A stretch of DNA of 64,000 bases from Escherichia coli (lineage in GTDB: Bacteria; Pseudomonadota; Gammaproteobacteria; Enterobacterales; Enterobacteriaceae), in the NCBI RefSeq assembly GCF_003018235.1, contig NZ_CP027437.1. One strand, given 5' to 3'. Of this stretch, positions 4,722 to 33,375 are shown one piece after another. Under the pieces are notes generated by a model. The model ran no database searches, was not told where the DNA came from, and saw only the letters and a list, made by a program, of their open reading frames with translations. Each line of letters begins with the position of its first letter. Positions within the stretch are counted from its first letter, which is position 1. The translations under genes were made by a program, and so were the position numbers.

Positions 4722-5255
4722 TTATCTGTCGATACCCCAGCACGCCAGCGCACTCTCCTGGTCACGCCGGGATACCTGACCGTAGCAGTTATTTGAGCGG
4801 ATACGGCAGTCTCTGCCACCGTCCTTGATCCACCAGCGAATCGCCTCGCAGGCTCCCTTGCGATCACCGGCATTAATCCGTCTGTAAAACGTCGACGGAA
4901 AACACTTACCGGGACCAATGTTGTACGGGCAGAATGACGCAATGCCCGCCTTCTGCGGTTCGGTCAGCGGCACTTTGATGTTTTTCTCCACCCATGCCAG
5001 CGCCTTATCCCGTTCGATGGCATTAACCTGGTCGCATTCTTCCTCCGACAGCTTCATGCCAGGAACAACAGGCTTACCATCCACCAGAATGGCACCACGG
5101 CAGATGGTCCAGATACCAGTACCATCACGGTATGCCGTGGTGTGGTTACCTTCTTTTTCATCCAGAAACTGGTCAAGGATTTCAGGCGCAGACGCCCCTG
5201 CGGCAATCAGCGCCAGAACGGCAGCTGACAGACCGTATCTGATTTTTGCGTTCAT
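4722..5255 (-). CDS. SAR endolysin (phage-21 R-type lysozyme)
   Basis: The N-terminal signal-anchor-release helix (YGLSAAVLALIAAGASA) is followed by the EG...T lysozyme catalytic region (EKEGNHTTAYRDGTGIWTICRG). It is paired with an S21-type pinholin upstream. Confidence 0.85.
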   Translation of the reverse strand: MNAKIRYGLSAAVLALIAAGASAPEILDQFLDEKEGNHTTAYRDGTGIWTICRGAILVDGKPVVPGMKLSEEECDQVNAIERDKALAWVEKNIKVPLTEPQKAGIASFCPYNIGPGKCFPSTFYRRINAGDRKGACEAIRWWIKDGGRDCRIRSNNCYGQVSRRDQESALACWGIDR

Positions 5256-6884: not shown

Positions 6885-8897
6885 TCACGCCGCTTCCGCA
6901 GCCGCATTCACCGCCACACTCAGGGTTTCCACTTCAATACTGTAAGTATCACCCGATGTAATACTGCTTAACATCAGGGTATCCCCGGCAGACACCGCGG
7001 ATGGCGCACACAGCAGCGTCATGTCTCCTGCAGACTTACCACCATCCAGCGTCAGCGTTGCCCTGGCCGTGCCTCCGCCATGATAACGAAGATGTACGGT
7101 ATGCCATTCGTTATCAAATGCACCAAATGACCCAATCTTCAGGTTCCCTGCACTCTTCGTACTGCAGTGTGATAACAGGTTTATGCTGCTGCCATCCGTC
7201 TGCACATAGAAGTTGAGTACGGACGGGGTCATCCCGCTGCCTGCTTTATTGAATGTCACCCCGGCTGGTATCCTCTGCGCATCCGGAAGCCAGTAAAGAC
7301 CAAAGGCATAACGCCCCTCACTGAGGGCTGTATCCGTGATACGGAAACGACAGAAAAACTCACCACCGTTGTTCAGCAGCGCCGTCGGCTCATCTGTGGT
7401 GGCATGTTCAAGTTTCCAGGCTGCCCCGCTCTGTTTCGGAACACTCAGCACATTCTGCGCCAGCGCATCACCCGATGAAGTCACCGTGTTTGCCGTGGTG
7501 GTCACCGTGGTGCCTTCCACCGTCCATCCCTGTGCCGAAACATCCCCTCCGTCTGCACTCAGAATAATGGCAGCGGTGGCTGGTGTCGTTCCGGTAGCGT
7601 CATCACTTCCTGTTCCGGAAGTGCCTGTACCCACATCCGTACCCGCATCAGTGGACGAACCACCGTCACCGAATGCAGTGTCCGGAGAAGAAACTTCACC
7701 GGTAATGAAACCTGACGTACGTCCCGCGTGCACCAGAATGGCTGACGCAAGGCGGTCAGAAATGATGCCGCGACGCGCCCAGGTGCTGAAATGACTGTCC
7801 CGCTGTGTGGAGACCAGACTGCCCTGGGTTCGTGATGCCGCACCGTAATACCCCACGGCCACAATATCCGGGTCTTCCGCTGGCTGGTTCGTTGGCGTGT
7901 TTGCGCCGTTTTCATCTGTCAGGAACGGCACAAAGAAAATATTCTGTGCAGTCAGATTTTTATAGGCACCATACACCGCTTCATACTGTGTGCCATAAGT
8001 GGCCTTCCAGTAATATGTCGTGTCACCACAAATCCACGGCACCGTGGCGGCATTGCCACTCACGCACTGCGCAGCAAGTGAGGACAGGTCAGTCCGGAAC
8101 TGCTGAACCATGGCCGTGAATAACCCGTTATGCTGCTGACTGCCTGAAGCAAGGTCTGCCTCGCCCTGCATCCAGACCACCGCCAGCAGTCTGTTTTTCG
8201 GGTTCTTCGCCAGCGCCGCTTTTGTCCGGCTGACCATGTCCTGATACAGGGGTTTACCGGCACCCCAGCGTGCAGCGTCAGCGGATGCGCCGGTGACCTC
8301 ACTGAATGTGCCGTCAGCCCCGGTGGTGAATGCAGAACCACCACGGCAGCAGGGCACCAGAAGTATCCCTGCATTCTGCGGGATATACGACAGCAGTTTT
8401 TTGGCAATATGCAGCCCCTGACTGACACAGCCATACTGCCCCTTATTCAGGTCCGCTTTCGGATGATTAACACCGCTCATATCCTGTACATCATGCAGAC
8501 AATGGTCAGCCTGAATCACATCATTATATGCACAGGCTGCTCCACCCGGCGTCACCGTACTGCGACGCGCCAGCTGCTTAATGCGCGGGTCCGGCCGGTC
8601 ATAAGAGTCCGGTAAAGGAAGCCCCTCACCATAGGCCATGCCGTTTGACTGCCCGGCCAGTGCAACCACGTAGTAATACTCCGGCTCACTGGCAACAGTA
8701 ACGCTGATATCACCGCCCGGAACCACCACCGGTGTGGTGACGTCCCCTTCAGCCGCAATGGCCTGCATCAGGATATTGGGGGTGATGGCTACCGGACTGC
8801 CAAACGGCTGCCAGCCTTCTTTGATTTTCTTTGTCAGTTGCTCAGCAAGTCCTGACGCAGACCCTGCCCTGACAACATCGTAATGTTTAAATGTCAT
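6885..8897 (-). CDS. Prophage sialate O-acetylesterase (NanS-p type: DUF1737 N-terminus plus SASA esterase domain)
   Basis: MTFKHYDVVRAGSASGLAEQLTKKIKEGWQPFG is DUF1737-like. ALAGQSNGMAYGEG carries the GQSN esterase motif. The gene sits at the position downstream of Q and the tRNAs that nanS-p occupies in Stx-type lambdoid phages. Confidence 0.75.
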   Translation of the reverse strand: MTFKHYDVVRAGSASGLAEQLTKKIKEGWQPFGSPVAITPNILMQAIAAEGDVTTPVVVPGGDISVTVASEPEYYYVVALAGQSNGMAYGEGLPLPDSYDRPDPRIKQLARRSTVTPGGAACAYNDVIQADHCLHDVQDMSGVNHPKADLNKGQYGCVSQGLHIAKKLLSYIPQNAGILLVPCCRGGSAFTTGADGTFSEVTGASADAARWGAGKPLYQDMVSRTKAALAKNPKNRLLAVVWMQGEADLASGSQQHNGLFTAMVQQFRTDLSSLAAQCVSGNAATVPWICGDTTYYWKATYGTQYEAVYGAYKNLTAQNIFFVPFLTDENGANTPTNQPAEDPDIVAVGYYGAASRTQGSLVSTQRDSHFSTWARRGIISDRLASAILVHAGRTSGFITGEVSSPDTAFGDGGSSTDAGTDVGTGTSGTGSDDATGTTPATAAIILSADGGDVSAQGWTVEGTTVTTTANTVTSSGDALAQNVLSVPKQSGAAWKLEHATTDEPTALLNNGGEFFCRFRITDTALSEGRYAFGLYWLPDAQRIPAGVTFNKAGSGMTPSVLNFYVQTDGSSINLLSHCSTKSAGNLKIGSFGAFDNEWHTVHLRYHGGGTARATLTLDGGKSAGDMTLLCAPSAVSAGDTLMLSSITSGDTYSIEVETLSVAVNAAAEAA

Positions 8898-9302
8898 GGG
8901 TTCTCCCCCTGTTGTAAACAACAATTCTTATGTACATACTTTTCCGGCCATCCTGTAAATCAAAATGCAAAAAATAAAACACTCACAATGTAAAAAATTG
9001 TTTCATTGTAACCACTGGTTTCATAAAAACTCATAATCGGAAGCCTGATTATCAGCCTTCCGATTCACAGACATCAAAAGAGCGAAACAATTAGTACCAA
9101 AATGATACAAAAAAATAAAACCCACCTTAAAAAACTAAATAAACCGATCTTTTTCAATGAGTTACAACAAGCCCTAGACTATGTTTTGTCTGTAAAAACA
9201 TCAAAGTCGATGTGCACAAGAAGGTTGAAAAAGATGGAATGGATAGTTATTGACACAGTGATATGCTCATCAAGCGGAATAACGTTTTCAACTGTGTGGT
9301 GT

Positions 9303-9563: not shown

Positions 9564-9648
9564 ATGGATGCATTTCAGATGATATTCACCTTGAGGTGCA
9601 TCCGCATAATCTGGATAGGAGCTGATCTCACGATCAGCTTCCTCCCAC

Positions 9649-9680
9649 ACCACCGTACGTACGGGGCCGTATACGGCGGT
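9649..9680 (-). other. Group II intron domain V
   Basis: ACCGCCGUAU-ACG-GCCC-CGU-AC-GUACGGUGGU folds as a 10-bp lower helix, a 2-nt 3' bulge, a 3-bp upper helix and a tetraloop. The CCGUAU...ACGUACGG consensus is present. A CGC triad replaces AGC, as in class C introns. Confidence 0.75.
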
Positions 9681-9704
9681 TCGGTTATGTTGATCGTCGC
9701 CTGC

Positions 9705-12068
<2,364 letters not shown>

Positions 12069-12073
12069 CCTTA
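12069..12073. repeat. IS100 target-site duplication, right copy (CCTTA)
   Basis: Identical pentamer abutting the IS right end. Confidence 0.85.
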
Positions 12074-12896
12074 TGAAGCTGTATCCAGGGAACTTGCGCG
12101 TTTCAGGGCGTGCTACAGCACTCTTCTTCGCGTTGACCTTCAGCTTCAGTTTATGGCTCAGCCAGTGCGTCAACCCCGCCATGATCCGGTTGCCTGCCCG
12201 TTCGCTTTTCACGTAGACATTACAGTCGTCTGCATACCGCACGAACTTCAGACCACGTTTCTCCAGTTCCTTGTCAAGGTCGTCAAGCAGCAGGTTCGAT
12301 AGCAGCGGCGACAGTGGGCCGCCCTGCGGCGTTCCTTCTGTCACCGGCCTTACCAGACCTGCGTCCATCACCCCTGCATTCAGGAACCTGCGGATAAGTG
12401 ACAACACCCGTTTATCCGATACTCGTTTCTCTATCCGGCTCATCAGCACATCGTGATTTACCCGGTCGAAGAACTTCTCCAGATTGAGGTCGACCACCCA
12501 GTGATACCCGGCCCCGATATGTTCCCGGGCCTGTATCACTGCCTGGTGGGCCGAACGACCGGGACGGAACCCGTAGCTGTTGTCGCTGAACGAGCTATCC
12601 CACTGTGCCTGCAATACCTGCATCATCGCCTGCTGGATGAAGCGATCCACCACCGTCGGGATGCCCAGCAGACGTTCGCCGCCGCCGGGCTTCGGTATGG
12701 ACACTCTTCTCACAGGAGATGGGCGGTATCTGCCGGACAGCAGTTGCGCTTTCAGCTCTGGCCAGTGGTGCCTCAGGTAGTCCGGCAGTTCGCTTACGCG
12801 CATACCATCGACTCCCGCTGCACCTTTGTTGGCTTTAACTCTTTTCAGGGCTTGCCTGAGATTGACTGGTTCACAAATGGCTTCCATCAGCCACAC
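12069..12896 (-). pseudogene. Group II intron reverse transcriptase, N-terminal (RT domains 0-7) part
   Basis: RT motifs are present: GAAGVDG, RRVSIPKPGGGERLLGIPTVVDRFIQQA, GFRPGRSAHQA, FVRYADDCNVY. Removing IS100 and one CCTTA copy joins ...[24 protein letters not shown] in frame, for about 410 aa in total. Confidence 0.85.
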
Positions 12897-13431
12897 TGTT
12901 GACGACGGACTTTATCTGTTCGTCGGTGCCTGCACGGTTTCAGCCCCCGGAAGGGCTGCGTTCGGGGCTTCACCCCGTTCCCCGGCCTCAGGGTCGCGAT
13001 GCGTTTTCTGCTGCATGACCGTTCAGAACCTCCGTTGATACTCGTCACTCATTACCGTTCGGGCCTTCGGGTGTCATGCCCTACTATGCCCTCTGCTGAC
13101 TCCTGTCCGCCGGTCAGCGCCCCTTACGGTACGCTCAGTTCTGGATACAGAACGACGGACAGGCCTCCCGGGGTAAGTTCAGCTGCCTTCACCACACACC
13201 TGTCCGATTTACCACCCCGGTTCTTGATGGTTATGGCCTTCGCAATTCTTTGCTTGCTCCGCCAACCGGGTAGGCCTCGTATCGGATTTCTGTTCGTCAG
13301 GTCATGGATTTGCTTCACGCTTCCTTCAGACCCCGCTTCACGACGACGCCCTTGCGCTTCGCTAGTCCTTCGCTACCATCAGGCTGGACAGGGGACTTTC
13401 ACCCCCGAGCTGCTGAACATGCCCGGCACAC

Positions 13432-13457
13432 AAAGAAAGCCCCTCCGGAGAGGGGCT
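13432..13457 (-). terminator. Rho-independent terminator forming the 5' exon of the group II intron
   Basis: Minus strand: AGCCCCTC-TCCG-GAGGGGCT followed by TTCTTT. The intron starts at the next base. Confidence 0.7.
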
Positions 13458-13484
13458 GGTATGCGCAATGTTCCATCATCTGCA

Positions 13485-13506
13485 TGGTGCCGGGTGCCTC
13501 CCGGTG
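13485..13506 (-). repeat. 22-nt GC-rich hairpin motif, late-operon copy
   Basis: The minus strand reads CACCGGGAGGCACCCGGCACCA, identical to plus strand 23989-24010. It contains CCGGG-AGGCA-CCCGG. Confidence 0.9.
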
Positions 13507-13785
13507 AGTCCGGCATCAGCATCCGAACCCGCAATATTGCCCAAATAAAGCTAAAGGATGATTGTGACCTGCTGATTTGCCCCTCCGCACAGGGGGATTC
13601 ACCATGCAGACATTTTCTTAGCAAAATCACTGCGTGCCAGGCAACTCCCAACTACATAAAATGTGGAGTTTGTGGCATTTATGCACATAACTCACAGGAA
13701 TTATCTTAAAAAAGCTGACAGGGCTTCCCCGGCAACGTAATACCATCATTCCCTGAAATGACATCCCCGTATTATCGACAGGCTC

Positions 13786-14261: not shown

Positions 14262-14338
14262 TGGACCGTCACCGGGGACTCGAACCCCGCACTCTCAACA
14301 TAAAAGGTTGATGCTCTTTCCTGATGAGCTAGTGACGG
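14262..14338 (-). tRNA. Phage tRNA, anticodon UUU (Lys-type by anticodon)
   Basis: A hand-folded 77-nt cloverleaf. Acceptor stem CCGTCAC/GTGACGG. D stem GCTC/GAGC. Anticodon stem TCAAC/GTTGA with loop CTTTTAT. T arm CGGGG-TTCGAGT-CCCCG. Encoded CCA. The C1-G72 pair is unusual. Confidence 0.6.
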
Positions 14339-14340
14339 CA

Positions 14341-14416
14341 TGGTGGCCCTTGCTGGATTTGAACCAGCGACCTGGCGGTTATGAGCCGCTCGCTCTCACC
14401 ACTGAGCTAAAGGGCC
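14341..14416 (-). tRNA. Phage tRNA, anticodon CAU, ileX/ileZ-like (Ile2 type)
   Basis: GGCCCTTTAGCTCAGTGGT...CTCATAA...GGTTCAAATCCAGCAAGGGCCACCA. The acceptor and T arms resemble E. coli ileX as remembered. 76 nt with encoded CCA. Confidence 0.75.
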
Positions 14417-14534: not shown

Positions 14535-14558
14535 CAAAAAACCCGCTCAGCGGCGGGT
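14535..14558 (-). terminator. tR'-type terminator downstream of the late promoter
   Basis: Minus strand: ACCCGC-CGCTGA-GCGGGT followed by TTTTTT, roughly 40-60 nt downstream of the predicted pR' start. Confidence 0.7.
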
Positions 14559-14605
14559 TCTTAAATCTTATCAACGGTAGACATACAAAGCCCATCGTTG
14601 GGAAA

Positions 14606-14634
14606 ATCTTATCCATATTTTTTGAAAAATGCAA
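14606..14634 (-). promoter_or_regulatory. Late promoter pR' candidate (Q-utilisation region)
   Basis: Minus strand: TTGCAT, a 17-nt spacer, then TAAGAT. It lies between the Q stop codon and the tR' hairpin. Confidence 0.6.
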
Positions 14635-14665: not shown

Positions 14666-15418
14666 TTATCTTGTCACCTTTCTCAATTGTATCTCTGCAT
14701 ATGCTTCTTCCTGCCAGCACTTTGTAACCAGTTTATCAATGACATCTGCATATCCTTTGTACCACTGATAATCCGTCAGGTCTGGTACCAGATTCTGGAC
14801 ATGATGCCGCGCCAGTGTGGTTGGTAAACGGCTAAACCGGTTTCCATTGCAACGCCCACAAATCTTATAAACCGGCGTGCCATGAAGCCGGGTTCTTTTT
14901 TCATCCAGGACAATACCTTTACCCTTACACCCTCTGCACGCTGTGCTGACTTCTCCCTTACCATGGCAATGCTGACATAGTTTCTTCACCCACTCTTCCT
15001 TGATAACAGATTCCCCGCTTCTGGAGTGTTTCACCACTTCGCGCAATACATTATGAAATCCAGTACCAGCACAATGCTCACAGCGAGCCTTACTTGCCGC
15101 AGACCTGGAATAATCAGCAAAGGCAAAATTCACAAGGTAAGGGATAATCTGTAACCGGGTTTCTTCACTCAATTTATTCAATGTCGGGTTATCCAGTGCC
15201 ATCGCGTAATTGAGCAGACCTTCAATCGCAAACTGAGGATCCTGAACGCCAACTTTTGCCAGGAATAAGGCAAAACCAAGCGGTGCTTTCGACTGCACCA
15301 TCCCCTGCGCAGCCATTACATCCGTAATTGTTAAACCACCAGAGCCTGTCGCCGGTGCGTCATCGCTCAATTTTGGAGATTTTGGGGAGTAATATTTCGG
15401 TAAGGCTTCAAGGTTCAT
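14666..15418 (-). CDS. Late antiterminator Q
   Basis: 250 aa with Cys-cluster zinc motifs (CEHCAGTG, CQHCHGKG, CRGCKGKG, CGRCNG). It lies immediately upstream of pR'/tR'. The sequence resembles Q of EHEC lambdoid prophages as remembered. Confidence 0.85.
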   Translation of the reverse strand: MNLEALPKYYSPKSPKLSDDAPATGSGGLTITDVMAAQGMVQSKAPLGFALFLAKVGVQDPQFAIEGLLNYAMALDNPTLNKLSEETRLQIIPYLVNFAFADYSRSAASKARCEHCAGTGFHNVLREVVKHSRSGESVIKEEWVKKLCQHCHGKGEVSTACRGCKGKGIVLDEKRTRLHGTPVYKICGRCNGNRFSRLPTTLARHHVQNLVPDLTDYQWYKGYADVIDKLVTKCWQEEAYAEIQLRKVTR

Positions 15419-19428: not shown

Positions 19429-19661
19429 GCTGCACCTCCGAGATGCTTCATGTTTTTTCCGGAGCAAAAGGCTATAAGCGGCATACTGATGCGGTAATTA
19501 CGGCCCAGCGGTTCACAAATCACCTTCTGACATTCACGGTCAACCAGGCTAACACGTAGAACATGCCCTGCAGGCGTGGTGTACCACTGCCCAACTGTAG
19601 GAATTGATGTTTTTTTACGCTGAAGCAAACGGCAAATATTGAGGATCAACGGATTAAGCAT
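19425..19661 (-). CDS. Small hypothetical protein (DUF4222-like pattern)
   Basis: A 78-aa ORF whose start and stop overlap both neighbouring genes. VGQWYTTPAGHVLRVSLVD resembles the DUF4222 pattern. Low certainty. Confidence 0.4.
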   Translation of the reverse strand: MLNPLILNICRLLQRKKTSIPTVGQWYTTPAGHVLRVSLVDRECQKVICEPLGRNYRISMPLIAFCSGKNMKHLGGAA

Positions 19662-20490
19662 GACGATGCCCTCCGTTGATATTCAGGAGACGGTGAATAT
19701 GAAAATTAGCCTTATCCGCCAAACGAATACGTTCAGCCTGCAAGTTAAGAAGTGTTTCTACCAGAACCTGATGCGCCTGCGGATCCGAAAGAGTTACCTT
19801 GCGCAGAGCACGTAGTGCAGTTGTTACATAACTGAGTTTATGTAAGTCTTCATCATTCAGACGAGTGAGGGCTGGGACAGTAGCCATGATGGCAGCCTCC
19901 TTGATCGGTGAAATACTTCCACCACCGGAAACGCCAATTTCGCTGGTGGTGAACTGAACGGGGTTGGCGTAACCGGTGATCAAGGAAACCGGCGCATCTT
20001 TCGATGCCCCCGCCCAGCCCACCATAACTTTGATGTGAGCAAATGCGGACGATAAAAAAGACGCTGGCGCGTCATATATCGCCTTGATCAATTCCAGGAC
20101 GCCAATCCCGGCACCCGCTTTATAAGGTGCCTGAACAGTGTAACGTCCCGGAATGGCAGAATCAATGTGCTGGTGGTCCTTCACACTCAACAAAATCACG
20201 CCTGAATTTCCACAAAGGACTAAAGCACTCATGCGGGTAGTCTTTGCGAAGATAGATAACGCGCTGTGTTTCTGGCTCCCAACGAATAACATGGACATAA
20301 AGCCCTCTTCCGTCACGAAACCAGCGGTTAAGTTCCTGCACAACTCGCCCCCCACAGTCAGGTAAAGTTCTCTGTGGTTACTTACAGCCAGGTGATTTGG
20401 TAATCTGCATTCATGCCGTAACAACAGGTGTTCAGCGACGCTGACCACCAGCTGTTGCGACAAACGGTTATTTGCCGTTAAACTGTTCAT
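19654..20490 (-). CDS. Hypothetical 278-aa protein in the replication module
   Basis: A long ORF with a 4-nt overlap to the cII-like gene upstream and an 8-nt overlap to the next ORF. No family recognised. Confidence 0.55.
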   Translation of the reverse strand: MNSLTANNRLSQQLVVSVAEHLLLRHECRLPNHLAVSNHRELYLTVGGELCRNLTAGFVTEEGFMSMLFVGSQKHSALSIFAKTTRMSALVLCGNSGVILLSVKDHQHIDSAIPGRYTVQAPYKAGAGIGVLELIKAIYDAPASFLSSAFAHIKVMVGWAGASKDAPVSLITGYANPVQFTTSEIGVSGGGSISPIKEAAIMATVPALTRLNDEDLHKLSYVTTALRALRKVTLSDPQAHQVLVETLLNLQAERIRLADKANFHIHRLLNINGGHRHA

Positions 20491-21444: not shown

Positions 21445-22131
21445 GTGAAAACACTGGCAGAACGATTAAAGATAGGTAGAGAGAAAGCTGGCATGAGCCA
21501 AGCTCAACTAGCTGAAAAAATTGGACTTTCACAACAATCTGTAGCCAAAATAGAGAATGGAGAAACTCTACAACCGCGCAAAATTAAAGAAATTGCAAAA
21601 ATTTTAGGTGTATCACAAAAGTGGTTACAACTTGGTATTGAAGACAACGCATCCATACCTGATCTTGTTGTAAAAGAAGCAGAAAGCACCGCATTAGACC
21701 CCGATATTTTCGTAAACATTCCTGTTTTAGATGTCGAGTTATCGGCTGGTAACGGATGTCTGGCTGAAATAGTTGAATCAGCTATTGACTGGTTTCCGTT
21801 AAGAAGAGCAGATTTGAGAAAATCTGGCGTATGTGCATCTAATGCCAAGATCGTAAAAATCTGGGGGAACAGTTTATTACCGGTTCTCAATAATGGAGAT
21901 CTTGTTGCCGTTGATATTTCTCAAACCGTTCCTATTCGTGATGGCGATCTTTATGCCGTACGAGATGGTGTATTGCTAAGGGTTAAAATACTTATCAACT
22001 TACCTGACGGTGGCTTGATTCTTAGAAGCTTCAACAAAGATGAGTACCCAGATGAAATACTCACCTTTGAGGATAGACGAGCCAGAATTCATGTTATAGG
22101 TAGGGTATTCTGGTCATCGCGAACTTGGTAA
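21445..22131 (+). CDS. CI-type prophage repressor (XRE HTH plus S24 LexA-like peptidase)
   Basis: GTG start. HTH MSQAQLAEKIGLSQQSVAKIENGE. The C-terminal autoprotease pattern GNSLLPVLNNGDLVAVD ... LLRVK is present. Confidence 0.85.
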   Translation: MKTLAERLKIGREKAGMSQAQLAEKIGLSQQSVAKIENGETLQPRKIKEIAKILGVSQKWLQLGIEDNASIPDLVVKEAESTALDPDIFVNIPVLDVELSAGNGCLAEIVESAIDWFPLRRADLRKSGVCASNAKIVKIWGNSLLPVLNNGDLVAVDISQTVPIRDGDLYAVRDGVLLRVKILINLPDGGLILRSFNKDEYPDEILTFEDRRARIHVIGRVFWSSRTW

Positions 22132-23004
22132 TGCGTCGAAAAGCATTTCTTCAGAAATAATTTTAAGTTTTGCACCATTATCATCCCGATAAGATATAGC
22201 CTTTTCGATCTTCCTTCCGTGACTTGAGAATTTCCAATCACGGGAGGAAAGCGTCCCTATTACTAAAAAATCCAACTTTTGAGTAATTCCACTACTGATG
22301 TTCCCACCAGCATTTTTAATCAAATTTTCAACTACGGCTCTCTTTCCTGCAACAAAAGTGCCTGTAAGACAATAGGTTTTACCCTCTAACTCTATCGAAG
22401 CCCCTACATCAATAGGCAGCCTGGTCGCCAAACCATCCACCACCCCACTTTCCAAGTCACATCCAGTGAAGTCTACTAATGCCTTATGTAGAGTTAAACT
22501 CTCATCTTCAGTAATAACACCATCTTTAAGAATTTCCTTTACAAGTGCATAAAGGTTTTTTCCTGGGTAGTTGTTCCTCAAAGCTCCATTTTGCTCAAGC
22601 CACCAATTAAGATATCTTATTTCTTCTTGAGTTAAGTTTCGATCAGCAATTAATCATTTACATAGTCCATTAAGTAAATGGACATCTACATCTTTGGAGT
22701 AAAAATCAATTTCAGGGATATCAAGAATTTCTCTCTGTATTTGAAGAAGGCTATTTTTAAGGTCATCACGTTCTTCTGATGTGATTATTCCATCCGCAAG
22801 AATATCCGATACCCGTGCTGATAGACTTTTTATAACTCCATTATTGATAATCTGCTTTGCTTCAAGTAACCATGTATCTAAGTAAAGAACCTCCTCTTCA
22901 CGGACAACTCCATCTGCAATGATTCCATCAATGATGCTAATCAAGTTAGCAAATAACTTGTCCCGGTTCTGTGTGTAATTAAAAGCGTAAAGCGCGTCTT
23001 CCAT
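22114..23004 (-). pseudogene. TerB-like repeat plus BRCT-domain protein, interrupted by one in-frame TGA (22654-22656)
   Basis: ATG at 23004 with AGGAGG upstream. There are four copies of an (I/L)x(A/K)D(G/R)x(I/V/L)xxEE helix motif. The C-terminus GKTYCLTGTFVAGKRAVVENLIKNAGGNISSGITQKLDFLVIG...KLKIISEEMLFDAL follows the LigA-type BRCT pattern. ORFs 22654-23034 and 22114-22581 share one frame. Confidence 0.6.
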
Positions 23005-23056
23005 ACAACCTCCTTTTTTTGATAATCCTTGCACTCCTTGACTACACGTTCAAACT

Positions 23057-23113
23057 ACATAAAGTTGTTGACAACATTCAAAACAACAACCAGATTACAA
23101 CTTAAAGGTGTTG
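23057..23113 (+). promoter_or_regulatory. OL operators and candidate pL promoter
   Basis: Operator repeats shared with OR. TTGACA at 23068-23073, with AGATTA/GATTAC 18-19 nt downstream. Confidence 0.5.
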
Positions 23114-23186
23114 AGATGACGAACAGGCAGGACGCCCACGAAGTAGCCGTCTGGGGCATATGAAGTCCAGGATGATTCGTTAGCAA

Positions 23187-23210
23187 CAAAAAAGCGCCCT
23201 ATAGGACGCT
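23187..23210 (-). terminator. Rho-independent terminator of the DUF1311 gene
   Basis: Minus strand: AGCGTCC-TATA-GGGCGCT followed by TTTTTT, about 30 nt after the stop codon. Confidence 0.6.
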
Positions 23211-23211
23211 T

Positions 23212-23224
23212 CGCTCTTTAACAA
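23212..23224 (+). promoter_or_regulatory. boxA-like element in the pL transcript
   Basis: CGCTCTTTAACAA equals the boxA consensus as I recall it. It lies about 120 nt downstream of the candidate pL. Confidence 0.45.
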
Positions 23225-23237
23225 TCTGGATGACTTA

Positions 23238-23750
23238 TTACTCAGATTTGAACTTTGGTTCTGGCAAAAGAGGAGGAGTTGAGTCCTCGAATCGTAGCCA
23301 GTGCTCCCAGATATCGTGGGATTGTAATTCCAGAAGACCAATTTGACGTGATGCAACTGCAGTGCCAGCTATAGTTCCTCCTGCATAATCAACCTGGACG
23401 GACTTTGACGCTTTCTCAATTAATTCTGTCCAAGCTTCACTTTCCGCGTTAAAAGAAGCAGTTAATTCCTGCAGACGCTGTGGATCATCCTTGTTGTCTT
23501 GTTTCAAACGATTCAGGGCGGCCACCGAATACTTATTCTTAACCCAGCTAACCTGAGCTAACTGAACTCTCTGACAAGCGTCCATATCAGTAGTTGTTTC
23601 CTGAGGCATATCAAAGCAGGAAATAAAAAAAGTCTCAACACCATCATTTAGACTACTGCTCGGCTGGTTCAAAGCATCAGAAGCATTGGATGCTATCGGT
23701 ATTATCAGTGCTACCGACAGAATCAAACGTTTAACATAAATCGCTCCCAT
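23238..23750 (-). CDS. Secreted DUF1311 (LprI-like) protein, moron antisense to the pL transcript
   Basis: A signal peptide (LILSVALIIPIASNASDA), then the C...C...W...Y...Q..W pattern of DUF1311. The gene has its own terminator. Confidence 0.6.
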   Translation of the reverse strand: MGAIYVKRLILSVALIIPIASNASDALNQPSSSLNDGVETFFISCFDMPQETTTDMDACQRVQLAQVSWVKNKYSVAALNRLKQDNKDDPQRLQELTASFNAESEAWTELIEKASKSVQVDYAGGTIAGTAVASRQIGLLELQSHDIWEHWLRFEDSTPPLLPEPKFKSE

Positions 23751-23916
23751 TTAATTATCCCCTCTAAGAACAGAGTCATCCAGATTATCTGAATCCTTGT
23801 TGTTGGGGAATAACCAGGCCCACCTCGCCTGATGTGGCTAAAAGCAGGCACATAACAGCTAAGTATTTTCAACCAGAGAGAATCCTTAGCGTTGTGGTGA
23901 ATGCGGCTCAGCGCAC

Positions 23917-24010
23917 GCGGGCTAAGGTTGAGGCTGACAGTCGACCTTCTGTGGATACCCACCCGCCTGGTGTGCAACCTTCGCCAGGCACCGGGAGGCA
24001 CCCGGCACCA
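23917..24010 (+). ncRNA. GC-rich multi-hairpin RNA module in the pL leader (candidate cis-acting or small RNA)
   Basis: Hand-folded stems. 23924-23948: AAGGTTGA/TCGACCTT. 23951-23962: GTGG/CCAC. These two are closed by GCGG/CCGC at 23917-20/23963-66. 23966-23988: CCTGG/CCAGG. 23991-24005: CCGGG/CCCGG. There is no convincing ORF here. Confidence 0.4.
23989..24010 (+). repeat. 22-nt GC-rich hairpin motif, pL-leader copy
   Basis: CACCGGGAGGCACCCGGCACCA, identical to the minus strand of 13485-13506. Confidence 0.9.
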
Positions 24011-24035
24011 CAACTTTATGCTGTGTATAGTCCTG

Positions 24036-24082
24036 GCGGTACCAGTTTGTACCCTTGCTTCCGGCTGGTACCGCTCTTTTTA
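24036..24082 (+). terminator. Rho-independent terminator in the pL leader
   Basis: GCGGTACCAG ... CTGGTACCGC (10-bp stem, 19-nt loop) followed by TCTTTTT. The 3' arm and tail also read CGCTCTTTTTACAA, which is boxA-like. Confidence 0.55.
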
Positions 24083-24170
24083 CAAAACAGAGAAGAGCAT
24101 CACCGGACGACGGGCTCATAACCCAATCCACCCGGGCGGCTGCCACCGCAGGTGTTCTTCTCTGTTTTGT
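24082..24170 (+). repeat. Perfect 15-bp inverted repeat enclosing 59 nt
   Basis: ACAAAACAGAGAAGA (24082-24096) pairs with TCTTCTCTGTTTTGT (24156-24170). The interior has further CACC/GGTG, CGGG/CCCG and GCGG/CCGC pairings. Confidence 0.85.
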
Positions 24171-24218
24171 GGAGAAACCAACCGACCTTGCAGGGTCGAT
24201 ATGATGAGGAGCAGCAAA

Positions 24219-24581
24219 ATGGCTAGCGAACGCAGTACCAACGTGCAGGAATTTATCGTAGAACTGGACGGCGGCGTATTTGAAACTAAACTCGGCGCAG
24301 TTCTCAGTGAAGTCGCTTCCGGTGTGATGAACACGAAAAACAAAGGTAAAGTCTCGGTCAATCTGGACATCGAACCGTTTGATGAGAACCGTGTAAAAAT
24401 CAAACACAAACTCTCATATGTTCGCCCGACTAACCGCGGGAAAATTTCTGAAGAAGACACCACCGAAACGCCGATGTATGTCAATCGCGGTGGTCGCCTG
24501 ACTATTCTGCAGGAAGACCAGGGACAGTTACTGACTCTTGCCGGTGAACCTGACGGAAAACTCCGTGCAGCAGGTCGTTAA
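24219..24581 (+). CDS. YfdP-like early-left protein
   Basis: MASERSTNVQEFIVELDGGVFETKLGAVLSEV... GAGGAG lies 9 nt upstream. The 120-aa length matches K-12 CPS-53 YfdP as remembered. Confidence 0.6.
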   Translation: MASERSTNVQEFIVELDGGVFETKLGAVLSEVASGVMNTKNKGKVSVNLDIEPFDENRVKIKHKLSYVRPTNRGKISEEDTTETPMYVNRGGRLTILQEDQGQLLTLAGEPDGKLRAAGR

Positions 24582-33052: not shown

Positions 33053-33139
33053 GCGAAGGTGGCGGAATTGGTAGACGCGCTAGCTTCAGGTGTTAGTGTC
33101 CTTACGGACGTGGGGGTTCAAGTCCCCCCCCTCGCACCA
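33053..33139 (+). tRNA. leuQ: tRNA-Leu (CAG)
   Basis: 87 nt. GCGAAGGTGGCGGAATTGGTAGACGC...CTTCAGGTG...CACCA, with a long variable arm. Confidence 0.95.
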
Positions 33140-33167
33140 AAAACCACGTTGATATTGCTCGCACTGG

Positions 33168-33254
33168 GCGAAGGTGGCGGAATTGGTAGACGCGCTAGCT
33201 TCAGGTGTTAGTGTCCTTACGGACGTGGGGGTTCAAGTCCCCCCCCTCGCACCA
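33168..33254 (+). tRNA. leuP: tRNA-Leu (CAG)
   Basis: Identical 87-nt copy. Confidence 0.95.
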
Positions 33255-33288
33255 AACGAGGCGATATCAAAAAAAGTAAGATGACTGT

Positions 33289-33375
33289 GCGAAGGTGGCG
33301 GAATTGGTAGACGCGCTAGCTTCAGGTGTTAGTGTCCTTACGGACGTGGGGGTTCAAGTCCCCCCCCTCGCACCA
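33289..33375 (+). tRNA. leuV: tRNA-Leu (CAG)
   Basis: Identical 87-nt copy. Confidence 0.95.

Follow-up and report, generated by a model that had tools for sequence, protein, structure and literature searches.

The window, a 64-kb stretch of Escherichia coli DNA taken at its full length, carries the late genes of a lambdoid prophage on its minus strand, in the order PF03589-type Q, tRNA-Met/tRNA-Lys, STnc100 RNA gene, group II intron, nanS-p-like esterase gene, and lysozyme gene, while cI (21445-22131) and the yfdP/yfdQ genes lie on the plus strand (Table 1). Two exact copies of the 22-mer CACCGGGAGGCACCCGGCACCA are found in it. Copy 1 (13485-13506) is on the minus strand, which is the strand of Q, the tRNAs, the esterase and the lysozyme, and copy 2 (23989-24010) is on the plus strand, which is the strand of cI and yfdP/yfdQ. 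The initial annotation had described each copy as sense to its own operon and followed by an intrinsic terminator, 27 nt downstream in copy 1 and 25 nt in copy 2, with no sequence relationship between the two terminators, and our analysis confirmed the positions, the orientations and both statements on the terminators. The repeat had also been judged not to be due to chance, which agrees with the finding that no third site with three or fewer mismatches exists in the 64-kb window and that 100 dinucleotide shuffles gave 0 matches to the 22-mer. As for the flanks, which had been called weakly similar, the answer depends on the level of comparison. By BLAST, the regions of copies 1 and 2 have only the 22-mer and the 8-mer TGGTGAAT in common, as had been claimed, whereas at the structure level they are homologous over ~210 nt, and the two regions are paralogues, not otherwise unrelated sequences.

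Table 1. Positions of the two RNA elements, their parts and their neighboring features in the 64-kb window.
Feature	Position	Strand	Details
Lysozyme gene	4722-5255	-	
nanS-p-like esterase gene	6885-8924	-	
Late-type STnc100 RNA gene (Rfam RF02076), copy 1	13426-13637	-	134.4 bits (gathering score 47), model positions 1-206
Predicted sigma-70 promoter, copy 1	TTGCCT 13644-13639; TAAGAA 13620-13615	-	18-nt spacer with TGc
P1 5′ strand, copy 1, GUCUGCAUGGUG	13600-13611	-	pairs with CACCAUGCAGAU, 13489-13478
Junction AAU, then hairpin P2 CCCCCUGUGCGGAGGGG, copy 1	P2 13596-13580	-	from fold and family covariation
22-mer copy 1, hairpin P5	stem CCGGG 13504-13500; loop AGGCA 13499-13495; stem CCCGG 13494-13490	-	
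22-mer copy 1, CACCA	13489-13485	-	inner 3′ strand of closing helix P1
Spacer, copy 1, UGCAGAUGAUGGAACAUUGCGCAUACC	13458-13484	-	27 nt, from sequence
Intrinsic terminator, copy 1, AGCCCCTC-TCCG-GAGGGGCT + TTCTTT	13457-13432	-	8-bp GC-rich stem, loop UCCG
tRNA-Lys(UUU) and tRNA-Met(CAU) genes	14262-14416	-	between tR′ and STnc100
True late promoter block	14535-14634	-	TTGCAT, 17-nt spacer, TAAGAT; lambda-type pause AACGAT 14599-14594; tR′ ~14558-14535
Q gene, PF03589-type	14666-15418	-	
Probable oL/pL region	23038-23113	+	operator-like repeats in common with oR, 23057-23068, 23071-23084 and 23094-23113; promoter-like hexamers
Early-left STnc100-like RNA, copy 2	23861-24083	+	44.5 bits, below gathering score 47; whole-window E-value 2.3e-6; model positions 1-206
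Structured domain, copy 2	23891-24014	+	124 nt; MFE -59.4 kcal/mol, z-score -2.6
Closing helix, copy 2	GUUGUGGUG 23891-23899; CACCACAAC 24006-24014	+	the two strands pair
22-mer copy 2	P5 23991-24005; CACCA 24006-24010	+	
RprA-like seed UGCUGUGUAUAGUC	24019-24032	+	13/14 bases of RprA UGCUGUGUGUAGUC
Intrinsic terminator, copy 2, GCGGTACCAG...CTGGTACCGC + TCTTTTT	24036-24081	+	13-bp stem (RNAfold)

The 22-mer does not stand alone as a hairpin. It consists of hairpin P5 and the inner 3′ strand of helix P1 in a larger multi-branched RNA domain (~125 nt), and both copies show the closing helix, the multi-branched domain ending in CCGGG-AGGCA-CCCGG, a spacer, and the intrinsic terminator. Copy 1 is a canonical full-length member of the STnc100 family, and its MFE fold by RNAfold is the multi-branched domain of the Rfam model. 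CACCA(UGC) pairs with (GCA)UGGUG ~100 nt upstream and so closes a domain of 134 nt with five hairpins. The first 7 nt of the spacer lengthen P1, and the remainder, which contains an RNase E-like ACAUU, is a putative single-stranded seed by analogy with the family architecture. The final bases of the Rfam match, GUGUGC (13431-13426), probably belong to the adjoining group II intron. A short ORF of 29 codons, starting at an ATG after CACC, was considered and rejected, since it is not conserved and most relatives have CACCAC.

Copy 2 aligned with the whole STnc100 model, with the same P1, P2, P5, spacer and terminator, without reaching the Rfam gathering threshold. Following P1, its domain has the junction AAU, a variant P2 GCGGCUCAGCGCACGCGGG, three middle hairpins and P5, giving five hairpins in total. 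The terminator reads GCGGUACCAG ... CUGGUACCGC (24065-24074) as RNA, followed by UCUUUUU, and it was missed by a simple terminator scanner because its loop is long. Sequence near-identical to copy 2 was found upstream of yfdP/yfdQ in SfV-like prophages, and more distant relatives in ST64B and phiES15. The homologues in SfV, ST64B, phiES15 and the loci L082 and L014 gave sub-threshold STnc100 matches of 30-41 bits, and every one of them follows a repressor gene and precedes the first early-left genes, in the same orientation. By these alignments, copy 2 and its relatives form a divergent pL-type STnc100 subfamily in the early-left leader of SfV/ST64B/phiES15-type phages, one that is missed by standard annotation. 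The kinship of STnc100 and PasD has already been published (PMC12370729; bioRxiv 10.64898/2026.05.13.724894), and PasD is associated with Hfq in RIL-seq data, where members of the family are treated as base-pairing sRNAs (bioRxiv 10.64898/2026.05.13.724894). Both copies agree with that family in lying in enterobacterial lambdoid prophages, and copy 1 has a PF03589 Q gene and a gene for a sialate esterase nearby, as published for PasD/STnc100, whereas the copy 2 group differs in its scores of 30-44 bits, its variant P2, the lack of its own promoter, its place in the early-left leader, and an RprA-type seed.

Copy 1 had been assigned to the late pR′ transcription unit in the initial annotation. 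Here pR′, AACGAT and tR′ form a separate block (14634-14535) directly after Q, and for this reason copy 1 is not the pR′-tR′ transcript; it is a unit of its own inside the late operon, located after Q and the tRNAs and ahead of the lysis genes, and co-directional with them. The pR′-tR′ leader would be only ~65 nt here, and copy 1 starts ~900 nt past the block, beyond two tRNA genes. The block likewise follows PF03589 Q genes in many IMG/VR loci, and since a lambda-like pR′-AACGAT-tR′ follows Q directly, the STnc100 promoter was also rejected as the pR′ of PF03589-Q phages. Leaders of the lambda 6S/StxS type start at the Q-dependent pR′ and end at tR′, which copy 1 does not. Identity with StxS was rejected, as a different RNA with a DsrA-like seed: the StxS of VT1-Sakai is encoded between Q and stx1, and the STnc100-like element of that phage, with an identical 22-mer, is found downstream of stx1B.

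A group II intron (9609-13431, minus strand) apparently opens with GUGUG right after the U-tract of the STnc100 terminator, and such placement after a terminator is typical of terminator-targeting bacterial introns. Its Rfam matches cover D1-D4 (13062-13347) and domain V/VI (9609-9681), its ORFs encode a reverse transcriptase (12012-12896) and a maturase (9705-10148), and it is split by an IS21 (10201-12002, plus strand) with an integrase-domain transposase and an IstB-like ATPase.

A sigma-70 promoter was predicted for copy 1 from its sequence, by analogy with the similarly placed -10 hexamers of late-type relatives, and RpoD ChIP-exo signal has been reported at STnc100 promoters (PMC10794520). 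Of 62 late-type relatives having a promoter-like site that scores at least 8/12, 49 have a -10 hexamer ending 5-9 nt (mode 7) before UGGUG. Transcription of copy 1 is predicted to start at ~13611-13607, at the 5′ end of P1, and the Rfam STnc100 model starts ~30 nt upstream of this predicted start. In pL-type members no such positioned promoter was seen. Eleven STnc100 copies are expressed in EDL933 lysogens, one of them confirmed by Northern blot, and late-type RNAs accumulate in lysogens as terminated RNAs of ~160-210 nt (PMC5331693).

The probable oL/pL region lies 780-850 nt upstream of copy 2. The 5′ leader of the early-left transcript (23120-23181, plus strand) is 98% identical to SfV over 60 nt, with its first 30 nt in common with ST64B, and has the short words GACGAAC and CAGGAUGA in common with HK022 putL. 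It is a candidate for the element that lets transcription from pL pass downstream terminators in N-less phages, and it could not be established as a put homologue, having only short words in common, another predicted fold, weak z-scores, and no second copy. Genes on the opposite (minus) strand occupy 22114-23750, between cI/pL and the early-left genes, so that transcription from pL must cross them antisense. They comprise a BRCT-domain ORF (22114-22581) and the ORFs 22654-23034 and 23238-23750, the last flanked by 24-nt inverted repeats (23223-23246 and 23763-23786). Another inverted repeat with 25-nt arms, ACAAAACAGAGAAGA... / ...TCTTCTCTGTTTTGT (24082-24170, plus strand), starts at the end of the copy 2 terminator and is kept in ST64B, so that a further structured element precedes yfdP. 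C4 antisense RNA (82 bits) and isrK (64 bits) adjoin at 19942-20130 (minus strand) inside a 278-aa ORF (19654-20490), the counterpart of SfV orf37, which is annotated as 'transcriptional regulator', and the pair is also present in SfV and ST64B. This suggests an antirepressor control module of the P1 immI / Gifsy IsrK type, with the start of the ORF over-called. Three tRNA-Leu(CAG) genes in a row (33053-33375, plus strand), with equal Rfam scores, probably form a tRNA operon of the host that lies outside the prophage, past its end.

IMG/VR was scanned with the 22-mer and, independently, with the 5′ motif TGGTGAATCCCCCT, each of which gave at least 120 stretches, and among the IMG/VR matches listed the family sequences are found in at least 21 clusters. 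Among the listed matches, 119 unique sequences were found by the 5′ motif alone; 114 of these have the 22-mer with three or fewer changes and 77 have it exactly, and the distance from the 5′ motif to the 22-mer is 74-110 nt. The plan of the family consists of P1 ((N)UGGUG/CACCA(N)), AAU, P2, one to three variable hairpins, P5, a spacer usually of 20-39 nt, and an intrinsic terminator. In 126 unique domains P1 takes the forms GCAUGGUG/CACCAUGC, GUGGUG/CACCAC, GUUGUGGUG/CACCACAAC and UAUGGUG/CACCAUA, with compensatory changes even within CACCA (UGAUG/CAUCA, UGGCG/CGCCA). In 75 sampled sequences, which are related so that the counts are not independent events, 85% of cells were paired compared to ~48% with partners slid by 1-3 columns, P1 pair 5-67 was GC in 38 and AU in 29, nine pairs had double changes, and the observed covariation was reached by 0 of 500 shuffles. 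P5 was 99.5% paired, with substitutions only to G.U. Near-fixed positions across at least 21 clusters are the P5 loop, the AAU junction, the P2 loop NNGCG, and a C.A mismatch. Wherever a Q, nanS-p, lysozyme or yfdQ neighbor was found at the 187 sites, it shared the strand of the element. The initial view of a functional non-coding RNA element with fixed orientation is supported.

The element is widespread. Exact matches to the 21-mer come from at least 25 genera of Enterobacterales. Of 5,426 complete E. coli genomes, about half have relatives of the late copy, with up to 12 places in a single genome, and the early-left variant, with at least 80% of the query covered, is present in ~1,800 genomes. 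RefSeq labels at family sites are 'none' or 'hypothetical protein'. The IpeX region of DLP12 and the yfdO-yfdP gap of K-12 CPS-53 were rejected as relatives, since neither region has the element, and HnrS was rejected because the HnrS paper gives no link to the STnc100 family. Such multi-copy occurrence and the mosaic prophage flanks could be expected of a repeat acting at the DNA level, either a fragment left by an IS or by recombination, a DNA site bound by a protein, or a chance match. Against this, zero chance matches are expected, the compensatory changes preserve an RNA helix (P1), the strand polarity relative to transcription is strict, and no transposase is associated with the element, the IS21 being inside the group II intron further downstream. 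The covariation and the orientation already effectively refute a DNA-level repeat, which has next to no probability left.

A strict terminator follows 87 of 113 late-type and 7 of 11 pL-type members, leaving about a quarter of members without one. The distance from CACCA to the terminator has a median of 28 nt and a range of 2-83 nt, and falls within 20-39 nt in 69 of the 87 late-type members. Since terminators are frequent at 20-39 nt across members, the hairpin-spacer-terminator arrangement is a family trait. The sequence of the spacer differs between clusters. Tandem arrays of 2-5 STnc100 units were observed in L028 (1812-2318), L059 (4465-5436), L012 (four copies) and L020, often with a period of ~253 nt, with a different spacer in each unit, and with some units lacking a terminator.

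A promoter or leader, a structured domain with an invariant junction and loop, a spacer of ~25 nt, a terminator and co-oriented genes also make up the layout of a riboswitch or of putL, and here two related copies lie in two operons of a phage without an N gene, with the early-left genes behind the copy 2 terminator. This layout would suit a domain that acts in cis on the polymerase or the terminator, as a put-like antiterminator or a riboswitch/attenuator, and thereby sets the flow into the early-left and lysis genes. However, the 22-mer was no more complementary to the 90 nt that follow it than in shuffled controls (longest helix 7.10 vs 6.67 nt, for ungapped helices involving the 22-mer), and mutually exclusive pairing of a sensor and the terminator was not found, as the MFE folds contain both the domain and the terminator. 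The wide spacing, the members without a strict terminator, and the terminated RNAs of lysogens described above also argue against action in cis, and efficient constitutive read-through into the lysis genes would be lethal. The earlier suggestion that the 22-mer is an independent terminator-modulating hairpin fails on the same lack of conserved complementarity and variable spacing, and on its being part of the larger domain.

HK022 put RNA acts in cis, by antitermination via the beta′ zinc-binding domain. It resembles the present case in that a lambdoid phage without N has a pair of related structured RNAs, one in each of two operons, with a terminator downstream of each. In contrast, put is ~70 nt long with two adjacent long stems and starts at or near pL/pR, whereas the domains here are multi-branched and of 124 and 134 nt, copy 2 is separated from pL by ~800 nt, and copy 1 belongs to the late operon and has a predicted promoter of its own. 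The HK022 immunity region contains no 22-mer within three mismatches and no STnc100 match. Identity with put was rejected, there being no match in sequence or architecture, and taking this together with the folds, the spacing and the lysogen RNAs, we regard a cis-acting role as quite improbable.

Among pL-type members the spacer is conserved, and its sequence is that of RprA nucleotides 60-78. It matches RprA at 19/19 positions in phiES15 (E-value 1e-5) and at 17/18 in ST64B, SfV-type members have 14-16 exact bases, and the seed of copy 2 departs from RprA at a single position. RprA is cut by RNase E at GA|AUU, and the mature RprA, which is stable, ~50 nt long and retains the seed, starts with AUUGCUGUGUGUAGUC (PMC5222698). 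This mature-form seed is present in copy 2 at 13/14, directly upstream of the terminator. Because mature RprA begins with exactly the pL-type spacer sequence, the 3′ module of the pL type is a look-alike of mature RprA, whose 5′ end AUUGCUGUGUGUAGUCUUU it reproduces directly before the terminator. It differs from RprA in its upstream part, promoter and locus, RprA being located in the core genome between ydiK and ydiL and copy 2 inside a prophage; the terminator in the window is unrelated to that of RprA, and the Rfam RprA model (RF00034) gave no match in 23700-24300 at E-values up to 10. Pairing to the rpoS leader was also tried and set aside, since RNAduplex on long sequences gave only uninformative long-range duplexes. 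The initial alternative, that the element is the 3′ module of an sRNA, came close: copy 1 is a canonical STnc100 gene, and the copy 2 spacer carries the seed of mature RprA.

The almost invariant P5 with its loop, AAU, P2 loop NNGCG and C.A mismatch across at least 21 clusters could also mean that the domain itself is the product, a protein-binding or decoy RNA directed at a host RNA-binding protein, an RNase adaptor or a defence factor, with the spacer and terminator as a generic 3′ end. The tandem arrays of 2-5 units and the occurrence at up to 12 places per E. coli genome fit dosage-dependent titration. On the other hand, if the domain alone were important, one would hardly expect the pL-type spacer to be conserved and to match a validated seed, and family members are regarded as base-pairing sRNAs in the published RIL-seq and Hfq work (bioRxiv 10.64898/2026.05.13.724894). 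A pure decoy seems unlikely to us for these reasons.

We consider it probable that both copies are prophage sRNAs of the STnc100/PasD, Hfq-type family, with a conserved scaffold and an exchangeable seed, the late copy being autonomous and the pL copy being embedded in a leader that may be processed to an RprA-like RNA. The late copy would be an autonomous sRNA gene, with its own sigma-70 promoter starting at P1 and its own terminator, giving a discrete RNA of ~180 nt in the lysogen, with Q-modified polymerase reading through it during lytic growth. The early-left copy would be a diverged paralogue without its own promoter, embedded in the pL transcript. Polymerases stopping at 24081 would produce a leader RNA, which may be cut in the spacer by RNase E/Hfq to release an sRNA of ~50-60 nt consisting of the seed and the terminator. 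The released sRNA would resemble mature RprA and may act in trans on RprA-type targets. The conserved domain, including the 22-mer, would serve as a scaffold that provides stability, a processing handle or a protein-binding platform, and the spacer would be an exchangeable seed cassette. StxS provides a precedent that supports the proposed processing, as an early-terminated phage transcript that is cut by RNase E and reuses a host seed: it is the pR′-tR′ transcript of Stx phages, processed by RNase E to a 74-nt sRNA (PMC7547250). The likeness lies in the transcript stopped at an early terminator and in the processed 3′ fragment carrying the seed of a host sRNA.

The near-invariant nucleotides of the loops and junction exceed what would be expected of a mere sRNA scaffold, which points to a binding partner. 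In a more far-reaching reading, the core of P1, AAU, P2 and P5 would be a specific platform, for a protein, RNA polymerase, an RNase E adaptor or a small molecule, combined with seeds copied from the host, and the early-left RNA would be an induction-specific mimic of RprA. We give this reading only a small chance; if it is true, the circuits for RpoS, biofilm and conjugation would be reprogrammed by the early-left subfamily as the prophage is induced. In a stronger form of this reading, RprA itself would be a descendant of the STnc100 phage RNA family, and the comparison of the RprA 5′ seed with the STnc100 5′ core by BLAST, with 17/22 positions and 2 gaps, was not significant.

The family described here is known, and what is new is the divergent early-left subfamily below the Rfam threshold; in an incomplete literature search, neither this subfamily nor a prophage RNA with an RprA-like seed was found to have been reported. 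STnc100 sequences are very common in E. coli genomes yet are not annotated as such in RefSeq, and annotators should note that a terminator after stx or before the lysis genes is that of the sRNA gene, not tR′. With the 22-mer as the core of a modular scaffold, the family would have a concrete and testable design, in which a fixed scaffold carries swappable seeds. We believe that this also gives what is apparently the first target prediction for any STnc100 member, namely that the RprA regulon may be addressed by an RNA switched on from pL at prophage induction.
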